Virus record (IMG/VR): IMGVR_UViG_3300007754_000007
Location: 1-64,000 of that record
DNA: 64,000 nt
Reading direction: 5' to 3' (one strand)
Source: a virus
Taxonomy: Duplodnaviria; Caudoviricetes
The notes under the pieces were generated by a model, which was given only the letters and a program-made list of their open reading frames with translations, ran no database searches and had not been told where the DNA came from. The translations under genes were made by a program, and so were the position numbers. Each line of letters starts with the position of its first letter. Within the stretch, counting starts at the first letter, position 1. Below are positions 4,904 to 51,600 of this stretch, piece by piece.

Positions 4904-5881
4904 TTACCGGGACAGCAGTCCTTGGATCCTCTGCTCGAGCCTCTCCGGCTTGCAGAGTCCCTGGACCAATCGGCGGGGGAGGAGAGACAATCCCGCCGCT
5001 GCTCCCAAGAGGGCTCCGGCGACTGCGGCGTTGGTATCCGTGTCTCCTCCGGCCATAATCACCCTTGTGAGGACCTCCTCGAACTTCTCGGCAGTGGTTG
5101 CCCCACGCAAGGGATGCTCGTGGAAGCGTCGGAGGGCCCAGAACCCGGCACCCATACACTTCCATGTGTATCCGATGGGCGCGCGTCGGTTCAGCCTGCC
5201 GGGGGTTAGTCCCTCATCCAGATGGAGGTCCTTGAGGCTGGCCAAGGTCCACTGACCACAGTCCCCATGGAACTGGTTCCCAGCCCTGCCCGCGTGGGCA
5301 ATCGCGAATGGGATTGTCTCTCCTCTCACCAGGAGGGCTGTCGCGACGGCAACGGCAACCGAGCCTGCGACGCAACGGGGGTCGAAGTGAGTGACCTTGC
5401 AGGTGTCCCATGCCTTCCTGATGGTCCACTCCGCATCTCCTGGACGGAGGAGGCCAACTGCGGCAGCACGCATGACCCCACCGTTGGGGGCGGAGTTTCT
5501 CCCGGAGTTCTCCCAAGCCTGTTCTGAGACTGCGAAGGGATCCAAGAGGAACACGCTGTCGGAGAGGACGTTCCAGGTGTGAGTGCCCATCCCCCGGCCG
5601 TCCCTTGTGGCCCAATCCAGGAACTTCTGAGCGACCGTCACTGGCTTGGCGTGTCCGTCCTCCAGGTATGCGTCGAGGATCGCGAGAGCCATCTCGGTGT
5701 CGTCGGACCAGTCCCCGGCCTCCCACTTGGTTTCTCCTCGATCCACCTTCCGGTACTCGAGAGGGCAGTTGCCGACACGTTCGCGGATGGCGCTGCGAGG
5801 CATGAACTCCAGCGGGAGTCCGAGGGCGTCTCCGATGGCCTTGCCGTAGAGAGCCCCTCTGAGTCTGTCTTCTTGGGTCAC
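4904..5881 (-). CDS. ADP-ribosylglycohydrolase (DraG/ARH family)
   Basis: GKAIGDALG, WSDDTEM, NGGVMR, THFDP and GGDTDTNAAVAGALLGA motifs; GTG start overlapping the upstream stop. Confidence 0.92.
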   Translation of the reverse strand: MTQEDRLRGALYGKAIGDALGLPLEFMPRSAIRERVGNCPLEYRKVDRGETKWEAGDWSDDTEMALAILDAYLEDGHAKPVTVAQKFLDWATRDGRGMGTHTWNVLSDSVFLLDPFAVSEQAWENSGRNSAPNGGVMRAAAVGLLRPGDAEWTIRKAWDTCKVTHFDPRCVAGSVAVAVATALLVRGETIPFAIAHAGRAGNQFHGDCGQWTLASLKDLHLDEGLTPGRLNRRAPIGYTWKCMGAGFWALRRFHEHPLRGATTAEKFEEVLTRVIMAGGDTDTNAAVAGALLGAAAGLSLLPRRLVQGLCKPERLEQRIQGLLSR

Positions 5882-6866
5882 CGTGTGTTCCTCGACTTCA
5901 GTTCTGCGATCCATTCGTTGCTCCAGGGCTTGTCCCGAGGACCCAACGGGGGGTGGGTGCCGTCCTTGTTGAACTTGGGGAGCACAAATACCCAGCCAGA
6001 ACCGTTGGTCTGATCGAGGCTCCCCCGAGCCATATCGTTGTGGGGTATGCGCCACTCAACAAGGGTTTCTTCGACGAGCTTCTCATCCCAAATCTCAGCC
6101 AGTTTCTCCCGCATGGTCTTGTACCATGCGATGTTCCCATCGATGTCGTCGTAGGGGTCCTGGAGTCCGTTGTCTCGGTTCCATTCCTCTCGAAGGATGG
6201 TCTGCTCCTGGCCAAGGACTTCCCGGAATACGGCTTGGGTGCAGAACTCCTGGAAACTTGCCCCGTTGATGGAGCCGGGGACTTGTCCGTCCTGTTGGGA
6301 AGAAGCGAGTTGGGCGAGCCACATGTCCCGCTGGCGCTGGACATTTTGCGCTACGATCAGAGACTGCGGATCAATTGGGTTGTCCGTGTCCAGCCACATG
6401 TCCTCCGGGAAATCGAACTCTGACCGCTTGTCCGAGACCCCGTTCCAAGGGCAGAGCTCAAGAGGAATGAGCTTGTGGTGAGGCCACCGTTTCCGGACGT
6501 CCTCCACATCCTTCTCCTTGGGTGTGAGACCGGCCATACGGATGCTGATGCCTTGGATGTTCTGGCCGCTCACCAGATAGAAGTCTTGATTCCCCGAGTA
6601 GAACTCCCACGCCTGCCGCTGGGCAGGCGTCATGTCTTCCAGGGATACGCCGTCCCCACTATGGTGTTGGAGTGTCCTGTCCGCGAGGACACAGGCGTAG
6701 AGGGCCTCGTGCTCCGGGGCCCTCTGGGCGAACTCTTCCTCGGGAACTCGGACCCACTCCCCAGCCAACCAACAACCGTTGGAGTTGTTGAACCCCGGCT
6801 GATACAGCTGATACCGGGCTTCTTGTGTCGAGTGATCCGGGAGAATCCGTTCGAGGGAATAGGCAT
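5878..6866 (-). CDS. hypothetical protein (probable 1-nt frameshift near 6856)
   Basis: ATG at 6866 is coupled to the upstream stop (TGATG); one extra C in a CCC run joins it to the 296-aa ORF 5878-6768. Confidence 0.6.
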
Positions 6867-17923: not shown

Positions 17924-17979
17924 GGAAGCCTCCTTGACTATGTTACGTCCTGGAGGTTCCTGGGGAACCCAGAGGTATT

Positions 17980-18007
17980 TGGTAGGCCCTAGGGACTCGA
18001 ACCCAGG
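17980..18007 (-). pseudogene. orphan tRNA 3' fragment (T-arm, acceptor strand, CCA)
   Basis: CCTGGGTTCGAGTCCCTAGGGCCTACCA with no 5' half. Confidence 0.65.
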
Positions 18008-18014
18008 ATGGAGA

Positions 18015-18359
18015 TGGGTCTTCTGGGGATTGAACCCAGGACCGGCGGATTACGTCCCAGCACACGGTTTCTCGTGCCACCTCGAAGGGGCTTGCTGGGC
18101 TGGACTATCTCATCACCCGTTCTGGGTGTCGCACGTATAGTCTCTGAGGGCTCTCCCAATCCCAGGATCCGTCTTCCCTCTCGGGATCCCGTCTGTAGGG
18201 GTTGCCTGCTGATTGCCCAATCCCCGACACTGTCACGCGAAGGGGCGTGGTCGGGGCTCTCAGGGTGTTCCAGCATACAGTGCGATGTTCACCTCAGTAT
18301 TCCTACTGAGGGCTTCCATTTTCGAAAGTCCGCTGCTCTCCCAACTGAGCTAAAGACCC
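18015..18359 (-). tRNA. tRNA-Lys(TTT) split by a group I intron (exons 18325-18359 and 18015-18052)
   Basis: joined exons give GCGGA-CT-TT^T-AA-TCCGC and a complete cloverleaf. Confidence 0.9.
18053..18324 (-). ncRNA. group I self-splicing intron (272 nt, no internal ORF)
   Basis: P TATGCTGGAA, Q AATCAGCAGG, R TCAGAGACTA, S GATGAGATAGTCC, terminal G; P1 with U.G pair at the 5' splice site. Confidence 0.9.
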
Positions 18360-20070: not shown

Positions 20071-20955
20071 CTATAGGCCCCGTCGGTATTTCCTTCCCTT
20101 CTGCCAACCTTCTACAAGCCATTTGGGGAGCTCGTGTTCCCGAACTCTCTTGGCCTGTCCAGAAGGGCCACACACCCAAACCCGAGGGGCCATTCCTTTT
20201 CTCCATCCCAAGGCTGTAACCCTCTGGGCCTCCTCCGGAGAGACTTTCCTCTCTTCTTGACCCAAATGGACCCAACAGAATCCCTTGGTCAGAGAAGGCT
20301 TGCCTTGTAGGTGTCTCTTGGCTGCTTTGGATATCTTTAGGCGGCCTTCAGGGGAGATTTTACAAGCGCGTCCGAGTACCCACCCCCGTCTCTGCATTTC
20401 TTCCAGGTCTCCCGGAAGAATGAGAGATTCCCCCTGTTCTGTGTGATTGACATAGATCCTTCCAACAGGATCGGGACGGATTCTTGACAGAAGGGGTGTC
20501 ATTTTCTCTCTGAACCGAGGCCCCCGCCCCCGCTTCCAACCCAGAACCATCCACTCCCCGACCACTTCCTTCCGGACCTTCCGAGGTTTCTCGCCTTCCA
20601 TCCAGACCCAGACCTTTCCGTACTGAGAGTTCTTTGGGCCCTTCTGGGCGTCGTACCAGCCGGGGCTCTCCACACCTCCTTCCATCAAGTTGTAGGTATC
20701 GGCGCGCTTGGCGAAGGCTGCTGTTACGAGCTCCTTCTCCTTCGCATAGGCTTCGGATCGGGTCTCGAAAATGAACAGGACTTCCTTGGTGAACTGGTCT
20801 CGCCCGTGCTTCAAGATGGCGGACTGGAGTACGGAACCGGATCCGAGGTAGGCGTCGTTGGGGTCCCGGGTCTTGTGGACTCCGATGTAAATCTTTCCGT
20901 TGGCGAGACAGGTCGTTCTGTAGACGGTGAAAACGACAGGAGGTAGGGAAGACAT
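20071..20955 (-). CDS. GIY-YIG (Seg-like) homing endonuclease 1
   Basis: [17 protein letters not shown]...YLGSG...E...YNL; four W-x-GW-x-x-GR-type repeats. Confidence 0.92.
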   Translation of the reverse strand: MSSLPPVVFTVYRTTCLANGKIYIGVHKTRDPNDAYLGSGSVLQSAILKHGRDQFTKEVLFIFETRSEAYAKEKELVTAAFAKRADTYNLMEGGVESPGWYDAQKGPKNSQYGKVWVWMEGEKPRKVRKEVVGEWMVLGWKRGRGPRFREKMTPLLSRIRPDPVGRIYVNHTEQGESLILPGDLEEMQRRGWVLGRACKISPEGRLKISKAAKRHLQGKPSLTKGFCWVHLGQEERKVSPEEAQRVTALGWRKGMAPRVWVCGPSGQAKRVREHELPKWLVEGWQKGRKYRRGL

Positions 20956-24406: not shown

Positions 24407-24483
24407 TGGTCGGGGCGGCCGGATTCGAACCTGCGACCGCTCGGCCCCCAGCCGAGTGCGCTGCCAGACTGCGCCACTCTCCG
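24407..24483 (-). tRNA. tRNA-Pro(GGG), apparently chimeric
   Basis: CTCGG-CT-GGG-GG-CCGAG; two acceptor mismatches and one T-stem mismatch. Confidence 0.8.
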
Positions 24484-25424
24484 AATTTAGCGTCTCTTCT
24501 TCGAGCCCATTCCACGGACCCAACCCTCTTGGGAGTACCTCGTAAATTGGGTGGCTGGGATTTTACGTCGGGACCCAGAATTGTTGTGTATCCAGACACA
24601 CCCCCATTGAGAGTGTGTTTCCCCAGGCCTTCCACACTCTGGTCTTTTAGACCCTTTGTCGGGACTTTCCCTACCTCCCCGTGCCCATCCTTGACCTAAA
24701 TATGCCTTGACCTCGTTGTCTGAGACATACTTGTAAACCCCATCTCGGTTCATGAGGGTTTTGCCTTTTGAGAAAGGCTCAACACCCTTCCGCGCTTGGG
24801 AGATAGTTTTCCGGAACTTTGGGCTCCCTCCTGTCTCCCATCCCTTCTCCAGATAGGTTTGGAGATCTTGGGGAGGCACATATTTCATGTTTTCCCCGAG
24901 ATGGATACAAACCCGGCCCTTTTCCAAGGGGGGTGGGACAGGACGCTTGAAGTTGGGCCCTCTACCGCGAGACCATCCTTCCGCCAGAAACTGTCCCAGA
25001 TCTTCTTTTTTGACCTTGCGAGGCTTCTCGCCCTCCGCCCATATCCAGACAGTTCCGTGAGAGGGGTTTTTGGATCCCCGACGATCCCTGTACCAACCAG
25101 GGCCCTCCACTCCTCCTGCCATCACGTTGTAGGTGTCTGCCCGCTTGGCGAACGCTGCGGTGACGAGTTCCTTTTCCTTGGCGTATGCCTCAGCACGGGT
25201 CTCGTAGATGAACAGGATCTCCTTGGTGAAATGGTCTCGACCATACTTCTTCACGGCAGCGGAGATCAGCTTCCCTGAGCCCAGGTACGTGTCATGGGGG
25301 TTCCGCGTCTTGTGAACCCCGATGTAGATCTTCCCGTTGACCAGACAGGTTGTTTTGTAGACGGTGAAGACGGCAGGAGGCTTGGTAGGCATACCCTACA
25401 AGGGCGATAGTCAATCCAAAACGG
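24426..25424 (-). mobile_element. GIY-YIG plus tRNA 5' part, inserted in the T-loop of tRNA-Pro(GGG)
   Basis: excising 24426-25424 restores a fully paired tRNA-Pro; GGTTCG is repeated at both ends. Confidence 0.75.
24487..25392 (-). CDS. GIY-YIG homing endonuclease 2
   Basis: [17 protein letters not shown]; four GW repeats. Confidence 0.92.
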
Positions 25425-26674: not shown

Positions 26675-27490
26675 TTACGTCCCTTGGCTGGTCGGAGAAA
26701 CCTTTGGTCGGGGAGTCCCGAGAGGCCAGCAAGATACGCAATGGTCCCGACCGCCTACGTTCCGCCACTTCCCATCTACCTCAACCCAGGTAGGGAAACG
26801 GGTCTCGCAGGAACCGCACTCATGGGAAGATTTTGGTTTCGGAGTCCTCGGTGGCTTGATCTTCCGCCCCCGGACCCAGCCTTGAGCCTTCCATTCAGGG
26901 AGTTCTGCTTTGGGGATCTTGCGGGACTTCTCCCCCAACTTGCATATCCAGGCTGTGCCGTGTTGAGAGTTCTTTTCTCCTCTATGAGTCCCTCGGTCAG
27001 CCATAGTGGTCTTCATCTTGGCTTTGGTCTCCTCGGAGTGCTTCCGACCCTTCCAAACATTTTGGAGATGTTTGGTGTTTTGGGCTCTGCGTTGTGCGGC
27101 CCATTCAGGGTCTTCCCAAAGCCTTTTTCGCGCTTCCGCCGCACGGAGAGAGATTCTTTTCCATTCCTCAGCGGTCCGGTTTTGAGCCACATAGCCCCAA
27201 CCACCATCCCCTCCAGGGCGGAGGTTGTAGGTGTCTGTTCTCTTGGCGAAGGCAGCGGTGACGAGACCCTTTTCCTTGGCATATGCCTCGACTCGGGTCT
27301 CGAAGATGAACAGGACTTCCTTCCGGAACTGATCCCGTCCGTATTTCTTGACAGCCAGGGAAATCAGATTCCCAGACCCAATGTATGCGTCGTTGGGATC
27401 CCGAGTCTTGTGGACTCCGATGTAGATCTTGCCGTTGACCAGGCACGTTGTTCGGTAGACTGTGAAGACGGGCTCGGGCAGGGTAGGCAT
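26675..27490 (-). CDS. GIY-YIG homing endonuclease 3 (NUMOD3, one GW repeat, Zn finger)
   Basis: [33 protein letters not shown]...CVSC. Confidence 0.92.
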   Translation of the reverse strand: MPTLPEPVFTVYRTTCLVNGKIYIGVHKTRDPNDAYIGSGNLISLAVKKYGRDQFRKEVLFIFETRVEAYAKEKGLVTAAFAKRTDTYNLRPGGDGGWGYVAQNRTAEEWKRISLRAAEARKRLWEDPEWAAQRRAQNTKHLQNVWKGRKHSEETKAKMKTTMADRGTHRGEKNSQHGTAWICKLGEKSRKIPKAELPEWKAQGWVRGRKIKPPRTPKPKSSHECGSCETRFPTWVEVDGKWRNVGGRDHCVSCWPLGTPRPKVSPTSQGT

Positions 27491-27667: not shown

Positions 27668-27729
27668 TGGCGCCTCTGGTAGGACTCTAACCTACGACCT
27701 CTCGATTCGCGGTCTGGTCCCGAAGAGGC
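27668..27729 (-). pseudogene. degenerate tRNA (Arg-like 3' half, CCA)
   Basis: CGAATCGAG AGGTC GTAGG TTAGAGT CCTAC CAGAGGC GCCA; GCCTCT 5' strand present, D-arm missing. Confidence 0.65.
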
Positions 27730-28418
27730 TGAGATGGTATCGAGTAGTAGAGACTCCGGTGATCCTCTATGGTAAACCATAGAGGTGTCGCGCCAAGAAC
27801 GCGCGCACGTTTTTCTAAAAGGACTCTCTTCTTCCCTTGTGATTCGTTGTAGCCCCTCCAGAATGCATTCTGCCGGGGATGGGCCCACATTTTACACTCT
27901 ACAAGAAAGGGTCCCTCCTCAGTCTCTATGTAGAAATCCGGGAGGTACCTGCGAGACACCCCAGTTTCATCCGTATAAGTGATGACTTCAGGGCACCTCT
28001 GTATTGAAGAAACCGTATGGTTCTTCTCGAACCATACCAAGCAAACGTATTCCAGTTTGCTGTCGCAACGGATAGGAGTTCCTTGGAAATCGTAGGTGCA
28101 CCGGATAGCTTGGGAGGATTCCTCCCCTGCTTGCAAGGAGGCTATTCTGCGTTTGGAAATAGCTTCCCTCCAAGCAGGATCCTTAGCCCGGTCTTTCATG
28201 CTGCAGGACCTTGAGCAGAATCGGTTGGTTTTCCTACTCCGAGGTCGGAACGGGGTTCCGCAAAAAGCGCAAGGGATCTTTGGCCTCTGCTTTTTCTGCT
28301 TCAACGTCTTGCTGACGCGAGCGTTGATATACCTTCGTGAGCAAGCCTTGGTGCAGAACCGCCCAGACCCATAATCCCCAGTGTGAGGTTTTCCACATTG
28401 TTCGCAGCTTTTCGTCAT
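27687..28418 (-). CDS. free-standing PD-(D/E)xK (TnsA-like) endonuclease with Zn fingers
   Basis: CEQC...FCTKAC, CAFC...FCSRSC, DSKLE...YLPDFYI...LVECK. Confidence 0.8.
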   Translation of the reverse strand: MTKSCEQCGKPHTGDYGSGRFCTKACSRRYINARVSKTLKQKKQRPKIPCAFCGTPFRPRSRKTNRFCSRSCSMKDRAKDPAWREAISKRRIASLQAGEESSQAIRCTYDFQGTPIRCDSKLEYVCLVWFEKNHTVSSIQRCPEVITYTDETGVSRRYLPDFYIETEEGPFLVECKMWAHPRQNAFWRGYNESQGKKRVLLEKRARVLGATPLWFTIEDHRSLYYSIPSQPLRDQTANREVVG

Positions 28419-28450
28419 CCCAACAGGTCTGAGTATAAACAAGTGAGTAG

Positions 28451-28524
28451 TGCGCCCAGGAGGACTCGAACCCCCAATCCCGGGATCCGTAGTCCCGTGC
28501 CTTATCCAGTTGGGCCATGAGCGC
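28451..28524 (-). tRNA. tRNA-Arg(ACG)
   Basis: CGGGA-CT-ACG-GA-TCCCG. Confidence 0.9.
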
Positions 28525-28529
28525 AGAAT

Positions 28530-29020
28530 GGGCATAGTCGGTTGACGCAAAACCCCCAGAAGGGGGGCGGGGGACTCGGGACCACTGCCCAACTCTGCCG
28601 TGTCCTGACCTGATTACATGCGCCCAAAGGGTTGGTTTGTCTTCACAGGCTTCGTGGGACAGAGGTGGCGTCGCGAGCGTTTAATCTCCCGTAGGAGAAC
28701 CACTTGTCATTTCCACCGGGCAACTTGATGATTCCCACTCTCCCGCCTCGCGGCGGATGTCTCGCGTAAACCGAGGAATCCGTAGTACCTGGAATCTCCC
28801 CTGCTTGACCGCTGAGCCACCAGCAAGCCAAGCCGAAGTTGTTTCGGAGTGTCGCCCCCTTTACCGCAACCCGAATGGGCTGGCAGGTGACAACTTCTCC
28901 CGGGGCAGACGCTCCCACTCCCTGGTGAGGAGAGGCTTCGTTAGGGATCGGTCACGGTCGGTTCCCTCCCCCCTCAGGGGTTGGTGAGCCGCCGTCCGAC
29001 GTCTGACCCGTTGACAATCC
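28530..29020 (-). ncRNA. candidate large structured ncRNA (possibly GOLLD-like)
   Basis: about 500 nt without a credible ORF, many hairpins, between two Arg tRNAs, downstream of a boxA-like motif. Confidence 0.45.
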
Positions 29021-31461: not shown

Positions 31462-32319
31462 TCAAGATTCTTTCCAGGTCTTTCCTCGGACAACGTGATG
31501 GATCGCCACATAGGAGACCTCAAACCGGGCGGCTAAAGACGCCTGTGTTGTCCCTCCCTCTCGATATATTCTCCGAATCTCACGTACCTTTTCCCAGGTG
31601 AGCTTGGCAAGAGGATGATTTTCCCCGGAAGAGGGCTGGCGGGTTTTAGGTGGTCTCCTCCCGAGACTCCATCCCTCTTGGAGCATAGCTTGGACTTCCG
31701 ATTCGAAGATCTTGCGGGCCATCCCTTTTGGAGGATGCATCCAAACCCGGTTCTGTCTCTGTTTACCCCTCCACCCTTGAGCTTCCCATTTCGGGACTTC
31801 TTCTGGAAGAACGTAGAGTGTCTCTGAGCCTTTGGACATCCGAACCTTCCCTTTGATCGGGGAAGGTCTCGGAGGCCCGCACCTTTTCCCACGCCCCCGC
31901 TTCCAACCCAGAACCATCCACTCCCCCACCACTTCCTTCCGGACCTTCCGGGGCTTCTCTCCCCCCATCCAAATCCATACTGTTCCGTGTTGGGAGTTCT
32001 TTTCTCCCTTCTGGCCGTCGTACCAGCCTCCGATTGCCCCACCTTCTCTCAGGTTGTAGGTATCGGCGCGCTTGGCGAAGGCAGCGGTGACGAGCTCCTT
32101 CTCCTTGGCGTATGCCTCGGCTCGAGACTCGAAAATGAACAGGACTTCCTTCTGGAACTGATCTCGCCCGTACTTCTTGACAGCCCGCGAGATCAGATTC
32201 CCTGAGCCCAGGTAACGGTCGTCGGGGTCTCGAGTCTTGTGAACGCCGATGTAAATCTTGCCGTTGGCAAGGCAGGTCGTTTGATAGACGGTGTAGACGG
32301 CAGGAGGTTTGGTAGGCAT
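31462..32319 (-). CDS. GIY-YIG homing endonuclease 4 (three GW repeats, C-terminal HTH)
   Basis: [17 protein letters not shown]; AKLTWEKVREIR...LAARFEVS...KTWK. Confidence 0.92.
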   Translation of the reverse strand: MPTKPPAVYTVYQTTCLANGKIYIGVHKTRDPDDRYLGSGNLISRAVKKYGRDQFQKEVLFIFESRAEAYAKEKELVTAAFAKRADTYNLREGGAIGGWYDGQKGEKNSQHGTVWIWMGGEKPRKVRKEVVGEWMVLGWKRGRGKRCGPPRPSPIKGKVRMSKGSETLYVLPEEVPKWEAQGWRGKQRQNRVWMHPPKGMARKIFESEVQAMLQEGWSLGRRPPKTRQPSSGENHPLAKLTWEKVREIRRIYREGGTTQASLAARFEVSYVAIHHVVRGKTWKES

Positions 32320-32426: not shown

Positions 32427-33494
32427 CTACAGAGCGGGCTGTGGCCTCGGGGCTTCCTCGGAGGTCTTGGTCTCCTTGGTCCCTGCGCGCTCCACGACCT
32501 CGCCGAAGTACGGGACCAAGAAGTCCTGCTCGTCCGCCACTGAGTAGAAGACCCCGTACATGAACTTGTAGGCACGGCGGGTCTCCAGCTGGACGACCTC
32601 TACGACGGAGATGCCCGTAGGGAAGTTGTCCAGGGTCGCCATCGTCTGCAGAGGGCGCTGGTCCAGGACGAAGTCACGGAGCCATCCGTTCCAGAGCTTC
32701 TGGGAACCCGAACCGCAGGTCTGGTTGTGGAACATGTCCTTCCACCAGTCGAGATCAGCCTCGCCGTCCTCCAGGGTGTTCCGGATCTTGGCGATGTGCG
32801 CCGCGACGATGTCCAGGTAGGGACGGGCCTTGTCCAAGTAGGCGGTCAGGCTGCTCAGGTAGAGCAGGAAGGTGTCCCAGTCCGTGACCGTTCCTGTGAT
32901 CCGGACCTTGGGGATCCCGCACAGATACATCATGTAGTTGTAGTACGGGGAGACGGCGTCCATGAACGCGGCCGTGGTGGCCTGTCGGGAGATCGGAGTC
33001 GACGTCGAGAACTCCGGGATGAACACGTCGGGACTCACCGGGCACTTCTCCCGGAGGAGGGGGAGGAAGTCCTCGATGGAGATATTCTCCACGGTGCCGG
33101 GAACCAGCAGGCTCTCCTTCCCCGGGGTGCGGGTGAACAGGTCCCGGTAGTGGTCGGCGTGGGCCTTGATGTGGGTCGCAAGCTCGGACAGGACCACGTA
33201 CCAGAGGGTCTCGGGTCCGATCACCACGCCGCGATGGAGCGCGTAGCAGCGCGCGACGTACTCGAAGAAGCTCTTGTGCTGGTGGTCGTTCGCCGTTCCG
33301 GTGCGCTCCCGAACCCGGTCCTTTGTCTTGAGACGTCGCTCCTGGTAGGTGCGGCCGTCCACGGTCACAGGCCGGGTCTCCCACTCCTTCCCCGTGAGGG
33401 AGTTGAGCCAGTTCTGCCGCGCCTCCTCGAAGGTCTTCTTGTAGGGTTCGCGGCGAGGAACGACCTCGAGACTGGGATCCAGGGTGATGAGCAT
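32427..33494 (-). CDS. DUF4419-like protein
   Basis: YALHRGVVIGPETLW, FSTST, CGIPKVRITGTVTDW, NGWL. Confidence 0.8.
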   Translation of the reverse strand: MLITLDPSLEVVPRREPYKKTFEEARQNWLNSLTGKEWETRPVTVDGRTYQERRLKTKDRVRERTGTANDHQHKSFFEYVARCYALHRGVVIGPETLWYVVLSELATHIKAHADHYRDLFTRTPGKESLLVPGTVENISIEDFLPLLREKCPVSPDVFIPEFSTSTPISRQATTAAFMDAVSPYYNYMMYLCGIPKVRITGTVTDWDTFLLYLSSLTAYLDKARPYLDIVAAHIAKIRNTLEDGEADLDWWKDMFHNQTCGSGSQKLWNGWLRDFVLDQRPLQTMATLDNFPTGISVVEVVQLETRRAYKFMYGVFYSVADEQDFLVPYFGEVVERAGTKETKTSEEAPRPQPAL

Positions 33495-42277: not shown

Positions 42278-42685
42278 GTGTACTCCCGAACACCCGGAGG
42301 GAACGTGCTGCCCGAGAACAGTCTCTTCAGAGTCGTGTCCCGTCGGGGACACCTATGCCTGGTTGCCAAGGTGTCCTTCTCTCCCGGGGAGGTGGTTCGC
42401 CTCCTGGATGGGGATGTGTACCTCCATCCTACCAGAGAGTCCATTCGCACTGCTCCGGATGTCCACATAGATGACGAGTTTGGGAGATACACGAATCACT
42501 CTGTGAACCCCACCTGCAAGGTAGAAGGGGGGTGTCTGGTGGCTCTCGTTCAGATCAACCCTGGAGGTGAGATCACCTTCAACTATATCGAGAACGAGGA
42601 GAAGATCCTGGCCTCTCCTTTCGTAGATCTGGAGACCGGAGAGCCCGTCGGGTTCCCCGTCTCTACGAGTCCAGACCCTTCTTGA
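42278..42685 (+). CDS. SET-domain protein (putative lysine methyltransferase)
   Basis: GRYTNHSVNPT and ALVQINPGGEITFNY motifs. Confidence 0.8.
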   Translation: MYSRTPGGNVLPENSLFRVVSRRGHLCLVAKVSFSPGEVVRLLDGDVYLHPTRESIRTAPDVHIDDEFGRYTNHSVNPTCKVEGGCLVALVQINPGGEITFNYIENEEKILASPFVDLETGEPVGFPVSTSPDPS

Positions 42686-45600
42686 GGGCTACGAGCTCTC
42701 TCTGGCGTTGGAGCTTGTCCGGAAGTTCGTCCTCGGCACGTCGCGCTTCCATGATTGATCCGTCTACTCGATCGGCCCGGAAACGGATCCATGCGTAGCG
42801 GAGGTCCCGGAACCGGTCATCGAGGTTGAGGACGTCTTCGATGAGGTCAGGGATCACAGGCCGCTGTCCGAATCCATCATCCGCGAAGTCTGTCCAACCC
42901 CCCTCATCCAAGCGGCCGTCCAAGAGCCAGAAGCGCCGGCCCAGGATAGAGAGGCAGTCGGACGTATTGGTGTAGGGTGTCTCGTCTACCAGACCTTCCA
43001 GGGATTCCACCACCAGATTCGACACCACCCCGGCTCCGTCTGTGGGGTCAGTTGGTGACCCGATGTTGTTGATGTGGTCCTCCGCCTGGAAGACATGGTA
43101 GTCCCCCCCACGCCCTTCCTCGTAGATTCCCTTGATCTCATCCAACCAAGATAGGGTCCTCTCCCACAGGAAGAACACCAGGTCCAACGCATCCTGGGAG
43201 AAGATGGAGTTGGGTCGGATGATTCGGTACGGGAACGGCTGGATGCTGGAGACCGCGTCGTTCCCGGTTCGGTTCCCGAAGAGACCCCCCACGGCAGGCG
43301 CTGTCGGGCGGAGAGTGTTCTGCCCCTCCCTCCCGGATCCCAGGGTGCTGACGTGGATGGTGGGCAGAGCCACGTATTCAGCACCCGTGCCTCCAAGGAT
43401 GACGTCATCCCCCCCGCCCTCATCGCTTCCTCCAAACCGGGAGGTTCCATCAACCTCGAGGTCGCCGCCACTGATTCCGGTGATCTTGTAGGCTCCTCGG
43501 TTATCATCAAGGGCTGCTGCGGCTCCGGAGACGTAGGCTGAGCGCCCCACAGTTCCGGTATCCCCTACGGGGCGGACACCCTTCTCGGACGGGTCGTAGA
43601 GCTCCCCAGCCGGCTGTACAAGCACGTAGTCGCCCTCTACCACCCCTTCAGAGGTCCAGGAGGATACCAGGTTGTCCTGCATCGTGTTCCACGTAGATGC
43701 GGATCCTCCGTCGGTATCTCCTCCCGGATAGTCGACCACACGTCGAAGTACTTCAGAGTCCGTGACGCAATCCAGGAGCTGGGCGTTGGACTGCTCCTGG
43801 GGAACGATCGGCTGTTCCAGGTAGATCTCGAAAGTGGCCGCCGACACCAGACTGGCGGTTAGACCAGGCCGCCGGAGGATGAGGTCCCCAGCCCCCGACA
43901 CTCCTTGGATCTCGGCAGAGTCTATCAAGGCTCCGTTCACATCCAGGATACGGAGGACGTCTCCCGCGTTGATGTTGACGCGTCCCTCGTTGAAGTCCCC
44001 AATCGTGGTTGCAGGACTCGTTCCCGCGGAGAAGGTTCGGGTCGCAGCCACGTAGGAGCCGAAGGTCCCCCGCCTGATCTCGTACAGATACTTGAGGAGA
44101 CTCAGCGCATCAGAGATCTCCGTCTGAATCTCATGGAAGCGGCGGATTCTCCGGACCTTGAAGTGAACGGCCTCCGAATAGGTCCCTGGGACGAAGTCTG
44201 AGTAGTTGCGATGTCCAACTTGAGCAGGGAACCCCGCCAAGCTATGGGAGTCAGATACTACATGGGGCCGAGCGAGATTCAAATCAGTGGAGGGCCGGGC
44301 GAAAGTCGGCTCAAGGAACACGCCCCCAAGAGCAGTGAATCCAGGAGTGCCTCCTTCCTCGAGAGTGCTGCCGAGAATGAACCGGTCCCGAGGAAGGAGG
44401 CACTCGAGGACTTGACCGGGGAGCCCCGCCCCAGTGTCAAAATGTACGGCTGTCCAGTCAGCTGCCTGCATCCCCTCCAGGGAGACGTGGGTTGGGACGC
44501 CTTCGATCTTCTCAGCAATCGAGACTCCTGCGTAGCTCCGCGCATATCTCACTGAGGCGCGGTCCTCGAAGAAGACCGCCTCGCTGACAGGAGTCGGGAC
44601 TCTGACACCCAAGGAGCTGGAGGAAGGAGTGCTCGTGTCTCCCAACAGGTACTGGATATCGGAAGCAGTGCTCGTCTTGTCCCAAGCCATGGTGGTGACG
44701 GTTGTTGTTCCGTGGACGCTGGGGTTTCGGTTTCCCATCACAGCCAAGGTGAACCCCGCTGTAGCATCGTTCCCGGAGCCATCTTCGGAGCTCCCCACCA
44801 CGTTGTTCGAGGGAAGTCCATGCGAGGCTCGCGGGGTGAATGGGAAGTAGATCATCCCGGACACCTGGACTCCAGACTCGTTCGCCGCGTCCCGGAACTC
44901 TGCGTCGGTGAGAGCCCCCCCGTTGGCGTCGGTCGCTGTTCCCGTAGACAGAGTGAATGTGGCCTCCCCCGTGGCGCTGTCGTAGGAGACAGCGGAGTAG
45001 GCCATCCGGTACACGGAATCGGACTGAAGGGTGTAGGATCCCGCATCGTAGATGGCGTATCGGGAGTTCCTGATCAGGTACACGAACGTCGTGGCGCCGT
45101 CGCCGGTTGGGAATCCGCAATCCTCGGGGGAATGTGGAACTTCGGGGACCTCCTCAGCCACGAGAGTCAAGCTGATGGCTGACTTCACCGAAGGGAAGCG
45201 GAGGTCCAATCCGTTCTTTTGTCCCGCGTCCGAATAGATCTCCTGCTCCCAGAGATTTCCTGTGTTGGTGTCCACGGCGTGCCGGACCAGGTATGTTCCT
45301 GTCGCGACCGCCCCGCCGCCCCCTGTAGTCTGATCGATCAGGAGGATATCTCCTGGAACCACCTCGGAGAGACCCCCAGAGGTCGCCGAGACAGCGCTGA
45401 TCCAATGACGAAGTCCATCCACTGTCAGAGCTCCGTCGGCGGCATCCCAGAGGGTTCCATCCCCTTCCAGGATCACGGAGTCCTCATCCAGGTCTGAAGA
45501 GGGGATCACCGAGAATATCACCCCCTCCACGCTTCCGGTGGTGAACGGAGAGGTCGTGTTCCCATGGCCCTCCCAGGCCATGGCTCGGAGCTTCCCTTCC

Positions 45601-48600
45601 TCGGATCCCGCTGCTCCTGGGATAAAGGTTCCCACGTAGGGAACCCCTGAGAGAACAGTGCTGTCCTCGTCGGGCCCAACCCGCTCCAGGAACGTGAGAG
45701 CGGACCCTCCGTTCACCTCTGCGGAGGCGTTGACCGCAGTAGCTGTCCCTGCACCGATCGGAGACTCATGTGCCTCCAGAGAAACTCCAAGTTCCGTAGC
45801 GTCTCCGTTGGCAGGATTGGAGTTCCGAGGGAGGGTTGTCGCGAAGGAGACCTGCTCACCGAACGTGAGGCGATTCGCCTTGATCTCGCAGGTGGTTGAC
45901 CCCCCTGCCGAACCCACCGGGATGTTGTTCCCGGAAGAGACACGGGTTGTGTTGGTGATGTAGGTGTCGATCGTGACGGTGAAGTCATGATAGTTGCCAC
46001 CGGTGACTCCCGAGAGCGCAGAGAGCAATGAGGCAGAGGTCTCTACCGAGATGATCCCCGCAGCTGTCAACGAGACCCCTGTCCCTGCCAACGTGAGAGT
46101 AGTCACGGTCGCGAAGGGGTCGTTCACGTAGATGGAGCCTGCAGCTGCCAGGGTCGGGATGACAACCTCACCTATGAGGGACTGTCCGGAGGCAGTCGCA
46201 GGGTCTGGGTTGTAGAGGCGGATGACAATGGCGTTTCCGCCTGCGACCAGGGCAAGCAACCCTCCTGCGAGACCTCCTCCATTGGAGTCGAACACCAGCC
46301 CACCCACCGATGAGCAGTCGAGGAGGGTGATCCAGTTCCCAGGGTTCGTCTCGGAGGGGGTGAGGCCAGAGGTCGCAGGGAACGCGCCCCCCAGGTATCC
46401 AAACGCATTCTCCACTGTGTACTTGTGGGTGTCCGTCTTGGTAGTCGGGGTCACGAACCGTGGGGTCTCCACCTTCCCGGAGGATACGGCGCCAACGGAG
46501 AGGATCCCTGTCATTCCCGTCAGGAGCTCTCCGGCAGCTTCCTGGGGCTGATCCGCCTCCACCAGGATGAGGTCGTAGGCTCGGCCGTCACCGATTGCCG
46601 TTCCGTCTGTGTAGGAGCCTGCTGTGGCGACAGGGGTCAGGTCCTGACCTGTATAGAGAGTTGCGGGATCTCGGTCGGGACCCAGTGTGTAGGTCTCTAC
46701 CAGAACGCCATCGACAGCTACGATCTCATCCGGATATACAGCCTTCCAAGTCTGGTCTCCATAGGGCATTGCCACGGACGTGTCCGCACCGAGGAGGATT
46801 CGGAACTTGGCCGCTACGTCCCCGAGGATAGCGAGCTCTGTCTCGGTTCCCTGGAGGTAGGGGATCTGGATATCCCCTGAGTCGTCAGCGGACTCCCCCT
46901 TGAGGCAGGGGAGCTTGACGGGCCTTCGATCAGTGTTGTTGAACTCTACCAAACCTTCGATGCAGCTGAGGGGCTGAGGGGGCTTCTGCCCAAGCATGTC
47001 CTGGAGCGGGAGTGGGAAGATGTCCTCCCGACCCGGGAGGGAAGCGTCGATGAACTCCCCTGAGCCCCGAGCCACCTTGAGATCGAACTGGACTCGGTAG
47101 TCCGGAATCATGCGGGAGAGCTCCCGCATCTGCTTTGGCGTGATCTCGTCTTCGTCCTCTGGGATATCCTCGATATCCAGGAGGTCCTCCCCGCCGAAGA
47201 TAGTATCCCCGCGCCCGGTGTTCTCGGAGACCACATCCTCGAGAGGGTCTGTGCCGTCCACCAGGACTTCCGATCCGGAGAGGTCGGAGCCGTCCACACC
47301 AACGAGGGTCAGGATACAGCCTACCTGGACTTCCCCGACGAAGATCCCGTTGCCGTTTGGATCGCTGAGCTCAAACACCGACCCGTCGGGCTTCCCGAAT
47401 CGTAGCCGTTGGCCGGTCTCGAATCCCGGGGTGGAGAGATCGATATCCCCTGTGAACAGGGAGAACAGGGAAGCCCCTGCCGGGAGCGGGTTGAACATGA
47501 GCTGGGTTGCGTCAGGCCATCCCGTGTCTGGATCTACAGGGAACTCAGAGAGAAGCAGCGGCGTTGCTACCAGGGTTGCCTTCCCGACGGTGGAGACTGT
47601 TATCCCTGTAGCTGATGTGAGAGCGGAATCCATCTCCGCATCTCCCTCTGGGAAGAACCTCCAGATCCGAGCCCGAGGGTGTCTATCGGTGGCGAGGACC
47701 TCGATGATCCCCGTGATGTTCCCAAGAGCTTCATTGGAGATGTTCCCAATGGCAGTGCCTCGAGTTCGGACAACGGACTTGGTTGTCTCTCCAGGCTCCG
47801 GACCGGGGGTCTCAACCTTCCGGCCGGACGTGTAGTATCCGGGATCAGTGAAACCAGAGGCGCTCGGGACAGCATCGATCCCGGGAAGGAGCCGCGAGAA
47901 GTGCCGGGCTCTCTCGGGGAAGAGCCTCGAATAGACATGAGGCTCCCACATATCTCGGAACAGCCCAGGGACGTTGAGTCCTGGGAAGATGAGCGCGAGC
48001 CCTCGAGGACGGCCCATTCCAATGAGGAGCCGGTCGTCCATATCGTTCTTGACACGACCTCTCTGACGGACCGTGAAAGAGGCCAGAGTCTCGGGGTCCG
48101 GGGTATCCCCGTCCGTCTCACCAGGACGCCCTACAGGGTCCTTCTCGGTTGCTGTAGTTGGGTCGTAGACCGGGTCCACTTCCTCGTAGAATCCGACACC
48201 ACCGGACCACTCGTCCAGGACTTCCCTCCAGATGAGACGAACCGTCAGGTCTCCCGAGATTTCGTCCTCGTAGCCGGGCCCTGCGTACCTCTTGTCATGT
48301 CCGATGAAGAACCGGAACTTCCCATCCCGGTCCCCGATCACACGCCCATCGAAAGACTCCAAGACCTGCTCGAAGGCCAGGACCACCCCGTTGTAGAGCT
48401 CGATGAAGGCACGGGCGGCACGGTCCAGGTCCTTCTTGTCTCGCACATCCCCACGGAGCCCAAGGAGCCCCTGTTCAGAGTTGTCCGGGAGACCGGCGAA
48501 CGCGTCGGTGGGGCCTCCGCTGTCCGAGGCCACAGCCCCCAAAGCCTTCCCTGAGACCTCTCCCAGGAAATCCTCCATTGGAAGGACCTCGTAGAAGAAG

Positions 48601-51600
48601 CTGTCCGGATTCGAGAACGTGTACTGGGCAGTGAGGGTTGCTCCAAGGATCCGATTCTGGAGAGACGGAGTTGTGATGAAGAGGTACTGGGCCTTGAAGG
48701 CCGGAGCAAGGATGGCCGCCTCGTCTACCAGAGGACCCACCTCGGACACTGCCGTGTAGGTGGCGACCAGGGATTCCCCGGGCTGGAGAGCTCCCTGTGT
48801 GGGGAGGACGAACTCCACGGCGCCAGAGGAAGGATCCGCCTCGTAGTGGACGCCCTCCGTGAGCTCTTTCCCAGGGAGTTCAACCCCAGCCTCTGTCCGG
48901 CCGACCAGGAACAGGGAGAACTCCTCTGTATCTACGAATCCTGAAATCCCTGGGAACGTCCTTGGGAGAGGACCAAAGACGGGCCGGACCGAGAGACGAA
49001 TGGTGTCTGTGGATGTATGTCCCGTGGCTATGGGGTTGGAGAGGTCTACTCGGGTGAATCTCCCATCATCGGACAGAGCAGAGCCTGCAACCAGGTAGGG
49101 ATATCCAGCGATTTCCAGGAGATGACCTACACGGGCGTACTGGGTCAGGTCCCCGAGGAACACAACTTGCAGCTGCCCTCTGTCCGCTTCTACCAGAGGA
49201 ACCCCGGAGACAACTGGGAGGAATCCCTCTTGTCCACCCCCTGCTACGGGGTCGGAGGGGTCTACGGTGATGGCGATCCTCTGGGAAGAGAACGAGAACT
49301 CGGAGTCCCGAGCCGGAGCCCTGCTTCCAACCTCGGTGCTGGGCGGAGGCCACACAGTGAACGTGGTTTCGTCTTCCCCGGCGTCGTACGAGACCGACTT
49401 CACGTAGAAAAGGGTCTGGTCCAGGACCATCAGGGCGCCGACCTGCACGTCCGGAGTGCGATTCCCTCCCACGGTTGCTGTGTCCTGGCCCTCTTCCAGG
49501 AAGAACGGTTTCCTGTACACAGGAGGGGTGGACACCTGGTAGGCTTGTTCCCCACCGAAGGCTTCCAGGACCCCATAGGTGATCTTGACTGTCTCGGAGG
49601 GGTCAACAGCCTCGGCGAATGTGAGAGTACTCCCACTCACAGTGACCTGTACGAGACCAGCGAAGTTCTGGAGCTCCACACCTACCCAGATTGCCGCCTC
49701 GATCTCCTCCGATACAGTTCTCCCGGTTGGGTTGAACGTGTAGGTGAAGTCGTCTACGCGAGTGGCCTCCTCCAGCTGTACGATCAGAGGAAGGAACTCA
49801 GTGATCAACGTTCCGGTGAGGGGGTCTCCGTCCGTGTCCGCTTGGTAGTATGCGGCCTCTACTATCTGTCCGTCCCGCAGGGGCTTGGTGATATAGATGT
49901 CTCCGGAGAGGGGAGACATCACCACATCCAATCCTCGCTCAGTGATCAGCTCCTCGAGGAAGTAGGCTGTCTCCCCTGTATGGGCTGTAGTATCAGCGTC
50001 AGAGAGGCGAATGCTCCCATCAGTGGGATCGATCTCACAGAACCCAGAGGCCAAGAGGCTCCCATCCAGGAACAGCTGATCGTAGTAGACCGTTTCCCCC
50101 GCGAAGTTCGTGAGCACATCAGAAGCGAATCGGATCTCTCCCGCGACCCCGCCGCCGGGCTCCCCTACTTCGATCTCCCCCGTCGCGATCGTCGTGGAGA
50201 ACGACGAAACCAGCGTCATGTTGGTCCCGGCTGTGAACTCCTGAGACCCCACTCGGATCCTGAAATACGCGGTCGCCGGCGCTGTGGAGTTGAGGAAATG
50301 GGGATCGGTTACGTCGGGGACGGACAACCCGGTCTCTGCCAATGTCCCCAGGTCCGACCCCGTCTCGAGGAAAGAGACCGTAGCCGAAGGACTACTTGAC
50401 GCAAGACCGAACCGCAGAGCCACAGGCCGGTTGCTCCCCAAGGCATCCGATACGACGGCGGATAGAGACCCCCCGACCGTTCCCGTGGGGGACAGGAGTC
50501 GAATCCTGAACGGCTCGTTCAGGAAGTGGTTGAACGGGACCCTCTGGGCGTCTGCGAGGATCGTGGGGTCGAAGGTATCAGTGGTCTGGCCTTCCAGGAT
50601 CCTCCACGAGAGTCCTGTCTCATCAGCAGGTGTAGGGGAGACAGTGAACTCAGCGATCCCCCCGACCAGGTTGGCGCCAGTGACTGTGTAGAGACCGGCC
50701 CCGGATCCGTTGATGACATGGAGTCTGTCACCCACCGAAACGGCGCTCAGGAGATTCCCCTGGAGGATCGCGTTCTGGGTTGACTCGGGGCTCAGGACAG
50801 GGTTCGAGAAGACCCCCGATGAGAAGGTTCCGCCACCCCCGGAGTAAACGGAACCTCCTTCGGGGGAGATCAGAACAGCTTGCCCGGGGGCTCCCTCTCC
50901 AGGGAGGAGAAACTCGGAACCCTGTCCCAGTTCTGAATAGCTGATGAGACCAGGCCGCTTGAGGTACAGACCGAAGCCTGCCCGAGTGGGATCCATGGCT
51001 TCGCTGTCTACTGTTTCCTCGATGACCCCCGTGTGGTCCAGCTGAAGCGTATCCGTTGGGGACAGGACAGTTGTGGCGGGGGTCTCTCCGAACTCGGCCC
51101 AGATGACCCGGTTGTTCTCCAGATCGTACTTGAGGCCAACCCTTTGACGGAGACCATAGTTGGACAGACGGACCAGGTTCAGCCCAAGGCTCATCTGGAA
51201 GTGTACGTCCTCATCGAAGCCGGGGATGTCCACCAAGGGAGGGTTGTTGACATGAACGAACGGGCTGGCCTGGACGTTATCGGTGAACACCTTCCCAGTG
51301 TAGGAGCCTGTCGCTCGGATGTCTGCGGTCAGATTCTCCCGGCTCAGATTCTCAGGACTCCGGTACAGGCCGAGGCTTGATCCGTTGTCGGGCTGCCAAC
51401 GGAAGGTGTCCCCTGAGGCATCCACCCTCCAGCCGGGAAGGAATCCCAGGACGGTGTGTCCGGAGAGGTCATCGGCGTCGGTGTTCCAGCCGATCTCCAC
51501 ACGCCCCGAAGAAGGAGTTCCGGCCTCGATGAAGACGCGACCTCGGATGACCCCTGCCTGGCCCGTCCCGGTGATGACCGTGTTGAGTTCCGTTGCGATC

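Follow-up and report, generated by a model that had tools for sequence, protein, structure and literature searches.

The interrupted tRNA-Lys(UUU) gene

A group I intron interrupts the anticodon of a tRNA-Lys(UUU) gene in the virus record IMGVR_UViG_3300007754_000007 of the IMG/VR collection (Duplodnaviria; Caudoviricetes), and a putative homing endonuclease gene lies directly upstream of it. The record comprises 72,260 bases, and the analysis was centred on its first 64 kb (64,000 nucleotides, hereafter “the window”). According to CheckV the record is ~14% complete, and it is therefore a fragment of a very large phage. The G+C content of the window is ~60%. The 18 tRNA genes that ARAGORN detects in it occupy the region 7.7–33.8 kb of the minus strand, and none of them falls at 18359–18015, where the split gene is located on the same strand; the standard ARAGORN search misses this gene. 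No other tRNA-Lys(UUU) was detected in the 72-kb record, so the split gene is the sole one there.

Exon 1 (18359–18325, minus strand, 35 nt) provides the 5′ part of the acceptor stem, the D arm, the anticodon stem strand GCGGA and the loop positions C32, U33, U34 and U35. It is followed by the intron (18324–18053, minus strand, 272 nt), which runs from C18324 to G18053, the omega G; its 5′ end is CGAAAAUGGAAG and its 3′ end GGGACG. Exon 2 (18052–18015, minus strand, 38 nt) opens with UAAUCCGC and contributes U36, A37 and A38, the stem strand UCCGC, the variable loop, the T arm and the rest of the acceptor stem; it closes with ACCC-A, where A18015 is the discriminator, and CCA is not encoded. 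When the exons are joined in silico, a 73-nt cloverleaf is formed, in which the 5-bp anticodon stem is perfect and the loop reads CUUUUAA; ARAGORN identifies it as tRNA-Lys(ttt).

The junction was placed with a filter demanding a perfect stem, a U preceding the intron and a G as its last base. Among the neighbouring junctions tested, U35|U36 is the only one which combines a U before the 5′ splice site, a terminal intron G and a 7-nt loop. A brute-force ARAGORN test of all junctions had no discriminating power, and the strict filter was used instead of it. The intron mode of ARAGORN misplaces the intron and yields a tRNA-Arg(tcg) with a mispaired anticodon stem; this call was set aside for the junction that follows the group I rules, and in tRNA arrays this mode returns mostly chimeras of adjacent tRNAs.

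Together with the Rfam match, the nhmmer match and the covariation described below, these data make it practically certain that a group I intron resides at U35|U36 of a phage tRNA-Lys(UUU) gene. A preliminary description made from the window sequence had placed a 272-nt intron exactly here, with a P1 pairing, a U·G at the splice site and a terminal G, and all of these elements are found in the window.

Structure of the intron

The preliminary description had also proposed an Rfam covariance search for group I introns. The model RF00028 (Intron_gpI) matches 18335–18081 over its full length (1–253) with 57.9 bits, above the gathering score of 50 (E 4e-12 for the whole window), and this is the sole group I match both in the 64-kb window and in the whole record. 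Thirteen helices were mapped on the minus strand (P1, P2, P3, P4, P5, P5a, P5b, P6, P6b, P7, P8, P9 and P9b), and all of them are fully paired in the window.

P1 (18328–18313) pairs CUUU|CG (18328–18323) with UGGAAG (18318–18313) across the loop AAAA, so that U35 (18325) faces G18316 at the splice site. P2 (18310–18293) is the hairpin CUCAGUA/UACUGAG with a GGAA loop of the GNRA type, and compensatory changes in it are seen by eye in the relatives. P3 joins UCGCAC (18285–18280) to GUGCGA (18134–18129); in the alignment of relatives it is paired in 100% of cells, and 5/6 pairs change on both sides. The P4–P6 domain (18275–18149) consists of P4 (18275–70/18212–07), P5 (18265–63/18218–16), P5a (18256–50/18228–22), P5b (18249–45/18238–34), P6 (18206–04/18151–49) and P6b (18190–84/18170–64). 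P7, the pairing of GACUAU (18142–18137) with AUAGUC (18108–18103), has two joining bases between its 5′ strand and the 3′ strand of P3. P8 (18128–18114) is a CACCC/GGGUG hairpin followed by J8/7, and in the P9 domain (18099–18056) the helix CCCAGCA/UGCUGGG (18099–93/18062–56) encloses two small hairpins, one of which is P9b (18076–73/18066–63) with the loop AGAAAC, which is GAAA in relatives.

The sequence folds more stably than expected from its composition: the minimum-energy fold has z = −2.96, only 1 of 200 dinucleotide shuffles being as stable, and without constraints it recovers P2, P3, P4, P5/P5a/P5b, P6b, P8 and P9. In an alignment of 12 sequences, 82.0% of the cells are standard-paired under the named structure against 33.6–43.9% when the 3′ partners are slid by 1–3 columns, and 38 of the 72 pairs change on both sides against 3–13 after sliding; because the structure comes from the window sequence itself, the count of paired cells is biased towards it, and the counts of both-sides changes less so. 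None of 500 shuffles reaches any of the five covariation measures. Changes on both sides affect all seven pairs of P5a and all four of P9b, while P7 is invariant in the 12 aligned sequences, and P7 and the joining regions (J8/7) are identical to those of the bacterial relatives.

With respect to the tetraloop–receptor pairs of subgroup IC3 (L2/P8 and L9/P5), the L2 loop GGAA is of the GNRA type, P9b is capped by AGAAAC in place of the GAAA of relatives, and no obvious receptor is seen in the short P8. No endonuclease gene is encoded in the intron; with 272 nt it is too short for one, and no frame stays open for more than 90 codons.

Bacterial relatives and their insertion sites

A profile built from 21 bacterial tRNA introns, with the window excluded, gives a single nhmmer match in the window (18327–18057, E 1.5e-26), and the window intron is 48–62% identical to the introns of this profile. 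The closest bacterial ones are two introns at position 35/36 of tRNA-Lys(CUU) from Acidobacteriota (62% and 61% identity), with which it groups with a clade support of 0.87.

To place these relatives, one genome per prokaryotic species was scanned with the P7…J8/7 motif, which occurs in at least 120 places; DNA of 80 of them was taken and, together with seven viral loci, subjected to a strict splice-and-fold test. Introns could be placed in tRNA genes in 33 of these 87 loci, mainly in tRNA-Arg(UCU) after position 34 (14 loci), the others including Asn/Lys, Met and tRNA-Lys(CUU) after position 35 (two loci). For the remaining 54 loci no tRNA was obtained under the strict filter, and some of the long-tRNA calls are probably false.

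A second scan used a 21-nt block specific for the Lys clade, which was found in 102 bacterial stretches (80 fetched) and six viral contigs, i.e., 86 loci for testing. Here tRNA-Lys(CUU) split at 35/36 was revealed in 24 loci from Pyrinomonadaceae and other Acidobacteriota, which brings this type to 26 bacterial loci over both scans. Thirty loci are readable as tRNA-Lys(UUU) split at 34/35, 29 of them bacterial (almost all from Solirubrobacterales/Thermoleophilia) and one viral. The site of the window intron, tRNA-Lys(UUU) at 35/36, occurs in a single locus, which is also viral (L198), and 28 loci gave nothing under the filter.

The bacterial tRNA-Lys(UUU) 34/35 loci may be misread as tRNA-Asn(GUU) split at 33/34 because the intron begins with U and ends with GG. 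This reading was considered for 24 of the 30 loci and rejected: their tRNA bodies are nearly identical to those of unambiguous Lys loci, and the discriminator is A. A simple score of P1 run length favoured the Asn reading and was judged unreliable.

As far as sequence comparison can tell, the window intron is a genuine member of the bacterial tRNA group I intron lineage. The classical members of this lineage, which belong to subgroup IC3, are located in Leu(UAA) at 34/35, fMet at 33/34, Ile(CAU), and Arg(CCU) at 36/37; they share with the window intron the P3–P9 core, identical P7 and J8/7, the U·G pair, the terminal G and a site in the anticodon loop. What sets the window intron apart is its gene, a phage tRNA-Lys(UUU), and its site, 35/36, the nearest bacterial relatives found being those in tRNA-Lys(CUU) at 35/36 and tRNA-Lys(UUU) at 34/35. 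The preliminary description listed the four classical types, and this list is outdated, as 21 tRNA intron types have been described in bacteria (Williams 2020, bioRxiv 10.1101/2020.01.27.920355). The running text of that preprint, as distinct from the table or figure naming the types, contains neither the word “Lys” nor the word “phage”. Likewise, a Lys 35/36 site, which was thought to be unusual, is less so with regard to bacteria, where Lys(CUU) at 35/36 and Lys(UUU) at 34/35 are split in many genomes, and it recurs in one more virus.

Introns in other phage tRNA genes

In the parts of a 2014 review bearing on this question, all phage introns known by then are said to reside in protein-coding genes, despite the many tRNA genes of phages (PMC3984707). 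Our search of open-access papers and bioRxiv turned up no account of a phage tRNA gene split by a group I intron. The scans nevertheless revealed five more viral contigs in which a tRNA-Lys(UUU) or tRNA-Arg(UCU) gene contains an intron supported by Rfam. The nearest parallel is L198 (also found as L306), a 74-kb contig in which tRNA-Lys(UUU) is split at 35/36 by a 249-nt intron, 65% identical to that of the window and scoring 56.5 bits in Rfam; its P7 carries the compensatory change GGCCAU/AUGGUC. In three contigs (L303, L304 and L305) tRNA-Lys(UUU) is split at 34/35 (73–77 bits), and in L472 the interrupted gene is tRNA-Arg(UCU), also at 34/35 (81.5 bits).

Thus, the bacterial tRNA-intron lineage occurs in phage tRNA arrays, and the window intron is a new instance of a known bacterial kind in a setting for which the searched literature holds no report. 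All these viral intron-bearing tRNA genes are missed by standard tRNA finders, and being invisible to them, such genes are under-counted in phage tRNA sets.

Several other viral candidates were less convincing. Two contigs (L453 and L463) match the intron profile with E-values of 2.5e-20 and 4e-4, show no Rfam match at E ≤ 1e-6 and are left as unconfirmed; their putative sites lie in Arg(UCU) and Asn(GUU) at 36/37. The profile also gives a weak match in L374 (15 bits), where no split tRNA could be identified. In L305, an 88-kb viral contig, two group I matches below the cut-off (~1890–2255 and 2411–2569, 21.6 and 33.4 bits) are situated within the 1 kb that follows the split tRNA-Lys; neither could be assigned to a split tRNA.

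Narrower motifs had little reach among viruses: the exact P1 pattern has no viral match, and the P7–P3′ 15-mer occurs in seven viral loci, none of them in a tRNA. The core motif was found in 23 viral loci, which have only the core in common with the window intron; 21 of them are without a tRNA candidate, and the other two (L019 and L020) gave one doubtful tRNA model each, which was not accepted. An Rfam search of the first 20 of these 23 loci identified a group I intron in L009 and L019 and an ordinary uninterrupted tRNA in L020. Comparison of 67 window open reading frames (ORFs) by tblastn with the small loci around the other viral introns gave no matches. No group I intron was detected in five near-complete huge-phage records (236–476 kb) that encode relatives of the endonuclease neighbouring the window intron.

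Among 50,697 records of cultured phages no close relative of the locus was detected, the sole match being a 39-nt core in an intron that splits the terminase gene of a Vibrio phage. This terminase, of Vibrio phage 1.193.O._10N.286.52.C6 (MG592562.1:60463–62901; L194), is annotated as three separate coding sequences; the gap before the third one has a group I core similar to P3′–P8–P7 of the window and therefore represents an unannotated intron.

The neighbouring DUF559 endonuclease

The ORF directly upstream of the split tRNA gene (18956–18303, minus strand) encodes a putative free-standing homing endonuclease of 217 amino acids, its most likely start being the ATG at 18956. A zinc-finger-like N-terminus with the motif C-x2-C…H-x3-C is followed by a DUF559/Vsr-like domain, for which the Pfam model PF04480 gives 42.5 bits, with a cut-off of 20.6. 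The nearest chain of known structure is PDB 3HRL (E 0.0035), to which the motif D-F…E-x-D-G-x-Q-H can be aligned. All 20 residues invariant in a 15-member alignment of the family are present in the window protein, and D134, F135, E145, I146, D147, G148, E149, Q150 and H151 are among the positions identical in 15/15 members. The NCBIfam equivalog PRK09767 was rejected as an assignment (39.3 against a cut-off of 218), and the PDB search at E ≤ 1 gave no sequence match to I-Ssp6803I.

The endonuclease gene runs into the tRNA gene: the final 19 codons of the ORF cover exon 1 together with the initial 22 nt of the intron, and the ORF terminates within P2 (stop codon 18305–18303). It has no stop codon before the tRNA. 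A similar overlap, of 24 nt, is seen in locus L026. One may speculate that, if the two genes are co-transcribed, 5′ processing of the tRNA would sever the stop codon from the endonuclease mRNA and so limit its expression.

The endonuclease family and its association with tRNA genes

A first search of viral contigs for relatives of the endonuclease yielded 42 loci. The tRNA closest to the endonuclease gene on one side is tRNA-Lys(ttt) in 33 of them, at a distance of up to 200 nt in 28, although this tRNA accounts for only 44 of the 416 tRNAs in these loci. A profile search extended the collection to 70 loci, or 57 after merging endonuclease genes with ≥97% identity. tRNA-Lys(ttt) is the nearest tRNA in 30 of the 57 (22 of 32 full-length matches and 8 of 25 partial ones) and tRNA-Asn(gtt) in 15, all of which are distant relatives with 27–38% identity; the remaining 12, L032 described below (there as L429) among them, have another nearest tRNA or none. 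Within the Asn-adjacent group (L457, L459, L461, L468, L472, L473, L484, L487, L489 and six more) the distance is below 150 nt in nine cases.

The protein tree does not separate endonucleases encoded upstream of the tRNA from those encoded downstream, and the 34 distinct phage tRNA-Lys(UUU) genes of these arrays are divergent, the loop CTTTTAA being their sole shared Lys-specific block. The association with one tRNA, the intermixing in the tree and the restriction of the shared block to the loop together suggest a homing endonuclease family tied to the anticodon region. Judging from these patterns, the family probably recognises the anticodon-arm DNA of particular tRNA genes. The anticodon loops of Lys(UUU) and Asn(GUU) differ in one base, and the Asn-adjacent relatives suggest a sister subfamily that uses this slightly different loop as its landmark.

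Some phage tRNA-Lys(UUU) genes, 83–88 nt long, have an additional stem-loop in their variable region, a feature uncommon in tRNA-Lys (L025:3117–3200, L042:3226–3313, L058:3128–3214, L037:2282–2366 and L062:4584–4666); several of them are located near endonuclease relatives.

An endonuclease gene inside the anticodon loop

The endonuclease most similar to that of the window (51% identity) is encoded on a 389-kb viral contig, in locus L032 (2426–3131). No tRNA-Lys was called beside it in the first annotation. Its tRNA-Lys(UUU) is split at 34/35: exon 1 ends with GCGGA-CUU, a 628-nt insert follows, and exon 2 opens with UUAAUCCGA. The insert is essentially the endonuclease ORF itself, with U before it and G as its last base. 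The intron mode of ARAGORN calls this split independently, and the spliced sequence folds as tRNA-Lys(ttt). No ribozyme signal was obtained in L032 even at E ≤ 10, and its tRNA is probably dead.

The insertion site in L032 is one nucleotide away from that of the window intron. The two tRNAs have an identical 18-nt block centred on the anticodon loop and diverge elsewhere, whereas the longest block which the window tRNA shares with each of 34 other phage tRNA-Lys(UUU) genes has a median of 10.5 nt, and only two of these (L042/L044) share as many as 16 nt. L032 is the only split of this kind among all endonuclease loci screened; apparent split tRNA-Lys genes in L040, L042, L045 and L057 were rejected as chimeras of separate tRNAs.

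Possible partnership of the intron and the endonuclease

We propose that the intron and the endonuclease form a system of “collaborative homing”. According to this proposal, exon bases C32–U35 would pair with the internal guide GAAG in P1, with U35 in a U·G pair, a free guanosine bound in P7 would attack after U35, and the terminal G18053 would then occupy the same pocket while the exons are joined. Since P10 has only ~2 bp, the anticodon stem would help to hold the exons together, and the product would be a normal tRNA-Lys with the loop CUUUUAA. The endonuclease, in turn, would recognise the DNA of the anticodon arm; by splitting this arm, the intron would render its own tRNA gene uncuttable by its own endonuclease and leave it usable. 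If the endonuclease cut an intron-less allele in a co-infecting phage, the window locus would serve as template for the repair, and the intron and the endonuclease gene, no more than ~1 kb apart, would be copied together.

Recipients for such a transfer are plentiful, since the uninterrupted 16-nt arm is present in at least 111 viral contigs. Of 80 intact-arm loci fetched, 71 are tRNA-Lys(ttt) genes, and 41 belong to arrays of three or more tRNAs. An endonuclease of this family was found within 1.5 kb of the intact arm in 0/80 loci, which is uninformative because the family is rare.

Collaborative homing has precedents in protein-coding genes of two phage systems, where the relevant sections of the published accounts describe a free-standing endonuclease acting with an ORF-less intron (PMC3984707; PMC2790892): F-CphI with the psbA intron of cyanophage S-PM2, and mobE with the nrdB intron of T4 (PMC3984707; PMC2790892; PMC6083498). 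As in these pairs, the window has an ORF-less intron in a conserved gene and a free-standing endonuclease gene adjoining it on the same strand; the coincidence of the endonuclease home site with the intron site is here suggested indirectly, through L032. The window system differs from them in that the interrupted gene encodes a tRNA and the nuclease is a zinc-finger DUF559/Vsr-like protein, whereas Endo VII-type or HNH enzymes serve in the F-CphI and mobE systems. SegB of T-even phages, a free-standing GIY-YIG homing endonuclease, is described in the passages devoted to it as part of the tRNA gene region (PMC13096335; PMC2988022). Like SegB, the window endonuclease is encoded by a free-standing gene among phage tRNA genes. 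SegB has no tie to a particular tRNA species or to any intron, while the DUF559 family tracks tRNA-Lys(UUU) and, in its distant branch, tRNA-Asn(GUU).

I-Ssp6803I, which Bonocora and Shub are said to have characterised in 2001, is reportedly a PD-(D/E)XK homing endonuclease with specificity for the anticodon region, whose gene lies within the tRNA-fMet group I intron of Synechocystis PCC 6803. The similarity to the window system lies in the link of a restriction-fold-type nuclease with a tRNA group I intron and with anticodon-region DNA. The window nuclease differs in being encoded outside the intron, in combining DUF559 with an added zinc finger and in residing in a phage.

Several observations count against the partnership. 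In no locus other than the window does an endonuclease of this family adjoin a tRNA-Lys intron. The intron profile recovered both positive controls and found nothing in the 42 endonuclease loci; in the wider set, three of 57 loci have introns, which are located in tRNA-Arg or tRNA-Asn genes 0.7–1 kb away from the endonuclease. Conversely, the endonuclease is encountered in none of 170 intron loci (flanks of ~0.5–1.5 kb per side), and L198, the other virus with a Lys(UUU) 35/36 intron, has no copy of it in the 74-kb record and differs in the anticodon stem. The 30 relatives beside tRNA-Lys(UUU) have this gene uninterrupted, and in L042/L044 the same 16-nt arm is intact 324 nt from a relative, whose match covers residues 60–198 only. 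In L032 the endonuclease ORF is frameshifted, and the boundary of the insert may be read one base to the left, which gives an Asn-type loop split at 33/34; the Lys reading is preferred because of the discriminator A.

Taking these data together, we hold the chances of the endonuclease being the partner of the intron to be slightly short of even. The whole account, which unites an intron of the bacterial lineage, its splicing and a free-standing DUF559 endonuclease as the collaborative-homing partner, seems to us evenly balanced between true and false. The preliminary description had the intron blocking a DNA endonuclease site, and this part of it has gained circumstantial support, as an endonuclease gene does adjoin the tRNA and the gene of a relative is inserted into the same anticodon loop in L032.

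More tentatively, an undescribed zinc-finger DUF559 family may read the arm DNA of tRNA-Lys(UUU), with a sister branch on tRNA-Asn(GUU), in the tRNA arrays of large phages and trace a three-stage route to mobile introns: the gene beside an intact tRNA (30 of 57 relatives), the bare gene in the loop, where it kills the tRNA (L032), and the gene beside a target split by an ORF-less self-splicing intron, with which the tRNA would stay usable (the window). We are inclined to doubt this reading in its full extent. If it is true, it provides a natural series of mobile-intron assembly and overturns the view that phage introns avoid tRNA genes.

The most serious rival is an independent origin of the neighbours: the intron would be a selfish passenger, acquired with a split gene captured from a bacterial host or by reverse splicing or recombination, and the endonuclease would be there by the habit of its family of settling next to any tRNA-Lys(UUU) gene. 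The intron would then neither guard against the endonuclease nor need it. A bacterial capture fits the exons of the window tRNA, which are up to 85% (median 79%) identical to intron-bearing tRNA-Lys(UUU) genes of Thermoleophilia/Solirubrobacterales and only 54% (median) to the phage tRNA-Lys(UUU) genes beside endonuclease relatives; these figures weigh against the partnership as well. The absence of the endonuclease from the flanks fetched for the intron loci of a lineage widespread in bacteria, its absence from L198 and the tolerance of most relatives for an intact adjacent tRNA-Lys(UUU) point in the same direction. However, the bacterial tRNA-Lys(UUU) introns are inserted at 34/35 instead of 35/36 and, with 61–62% identity to the window intron, are no closer to it than those of tRNA-Lys(CUU). 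In addition, a passenger origin leaves it to coincidence that the two most similar endonucleases both stand beside an interrupted copy of the same 18-nt arm, that the interruptions are one nucleotide apart and that the rest of both tRNAs is divergent. We consider this explanation a real contender, with the greater part of our expectation lying elsewhere.

A second rival questions splicing itself: the intron would splice poorly or not at all, the gene would be dead, and the phage would use the host tRNA-Lys(UUU) or a copy in the unassembled part of its genome. The weak points of the fold may be cited in its favour, namely an Rfam score only ~8 bits above the cut-off, a P8 of 5 bp, a P9b loop closed by an A–C mismatch and a P10 of ~2 bp, and so may the low completeness of the record, with which another copy may exist outside it. 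Nevertheless, an equally short P8 is found in seven bacterial tRNA-Arg(UCU) introns of the alignment, pairing is complete in each of the 13 helices, P7 and the joining regions match those of the bacterial relatives, both exons give a flawless cloverleaf with the expected A73 and U35, and the 72 kb hold no other tRNA-Lys(UUU). A dead gene is therefore improbable, and the intron is probably splicing-competent.

The weakest explanation concerns defence: tRNA-Lys(UUU) is the substrate of the anticodon nuclease PrrC, and the intron was suggested in the preliminary description to shield the precursor from PrrC-type enzymes, or might delay maturation so that fresh tRNA-Lys is supplied once that of the host has been cut, which we regard as very improbable, since the spliced loop is the canonical CUUUUAA of 34 other phage tRNA-Lys(UUU) genes, so that the mature tRNA has nothing with which to evade the nuclease, the precursor does not translate, the mature form that does would be as cleavable as that of the host, and 34 distinct phage tRNA-Lys(UUU) genes in related arrays do without an intron. 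No anticodon nuclease, RNA ligase or kinase was found, no search aimed at them having been made. Phage tRNA arrays as such can counter tRNA-cutting defences, according to the portion of PMC13096335 that deals with them, which is the point in favour of this idea.

With the family encoded next door, collaborative homing could be put to the test on an RNA gene, and nucleases that target short, highly conserved stretches of tRNA genes might be obtained from it. Should the partnership be real, it would represent a new form of collaborative homing; otherwise the finding reduces to a known intron type in a host gene and at a site that are new for it, which is useful for annotation and not surprising.

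Other features of the window

Directly 3′ of the split gene, a tRNA-like 3′ fragment (17966–18014, minus strand) can be read directly in the sequence as a T-arm-like CCUGGGUUCGAGUCCCUAGG followed by GGCCUACCA. No matching 5′ half was found for it, and ARAGORN makes no call there. It may be a relic of the 3′ end of an older tRNA, left by the recombination which replaced that tRNA.

Four GIY-YIG ORFs (SegE-like, phrog_314) and one HNH-like ORF are interspersed among the tRNA genes of the window, all on the minus strand (20071–20955, 24487–25392, 26675–27490, 31462–32319 and 27687–28535). The ORF at 24487–25392 ends 4 nt before tRNA-Pro(GGG) (24407–24483), a layout that mirrors the one of the DUF559 gene and tRNA-Lys.

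None of the window ORFs was recognised as a capsid, portal or terminase gene. An ORF of ~3,600 codons (42663–53558, minus strand) has no Pfam or PHROG match, as is the case for the adjacent ORFs of 803, 840 and 1,289 codons. The edges of the tRNA region are occupied by an ADP-ribosylglycohydrolase-like ORF (4904–5914, minus strand; phrog_6572, E 4e-38) and a DUF4419 ORF (32427–33494, minus strand; Pfam E 4e-38).

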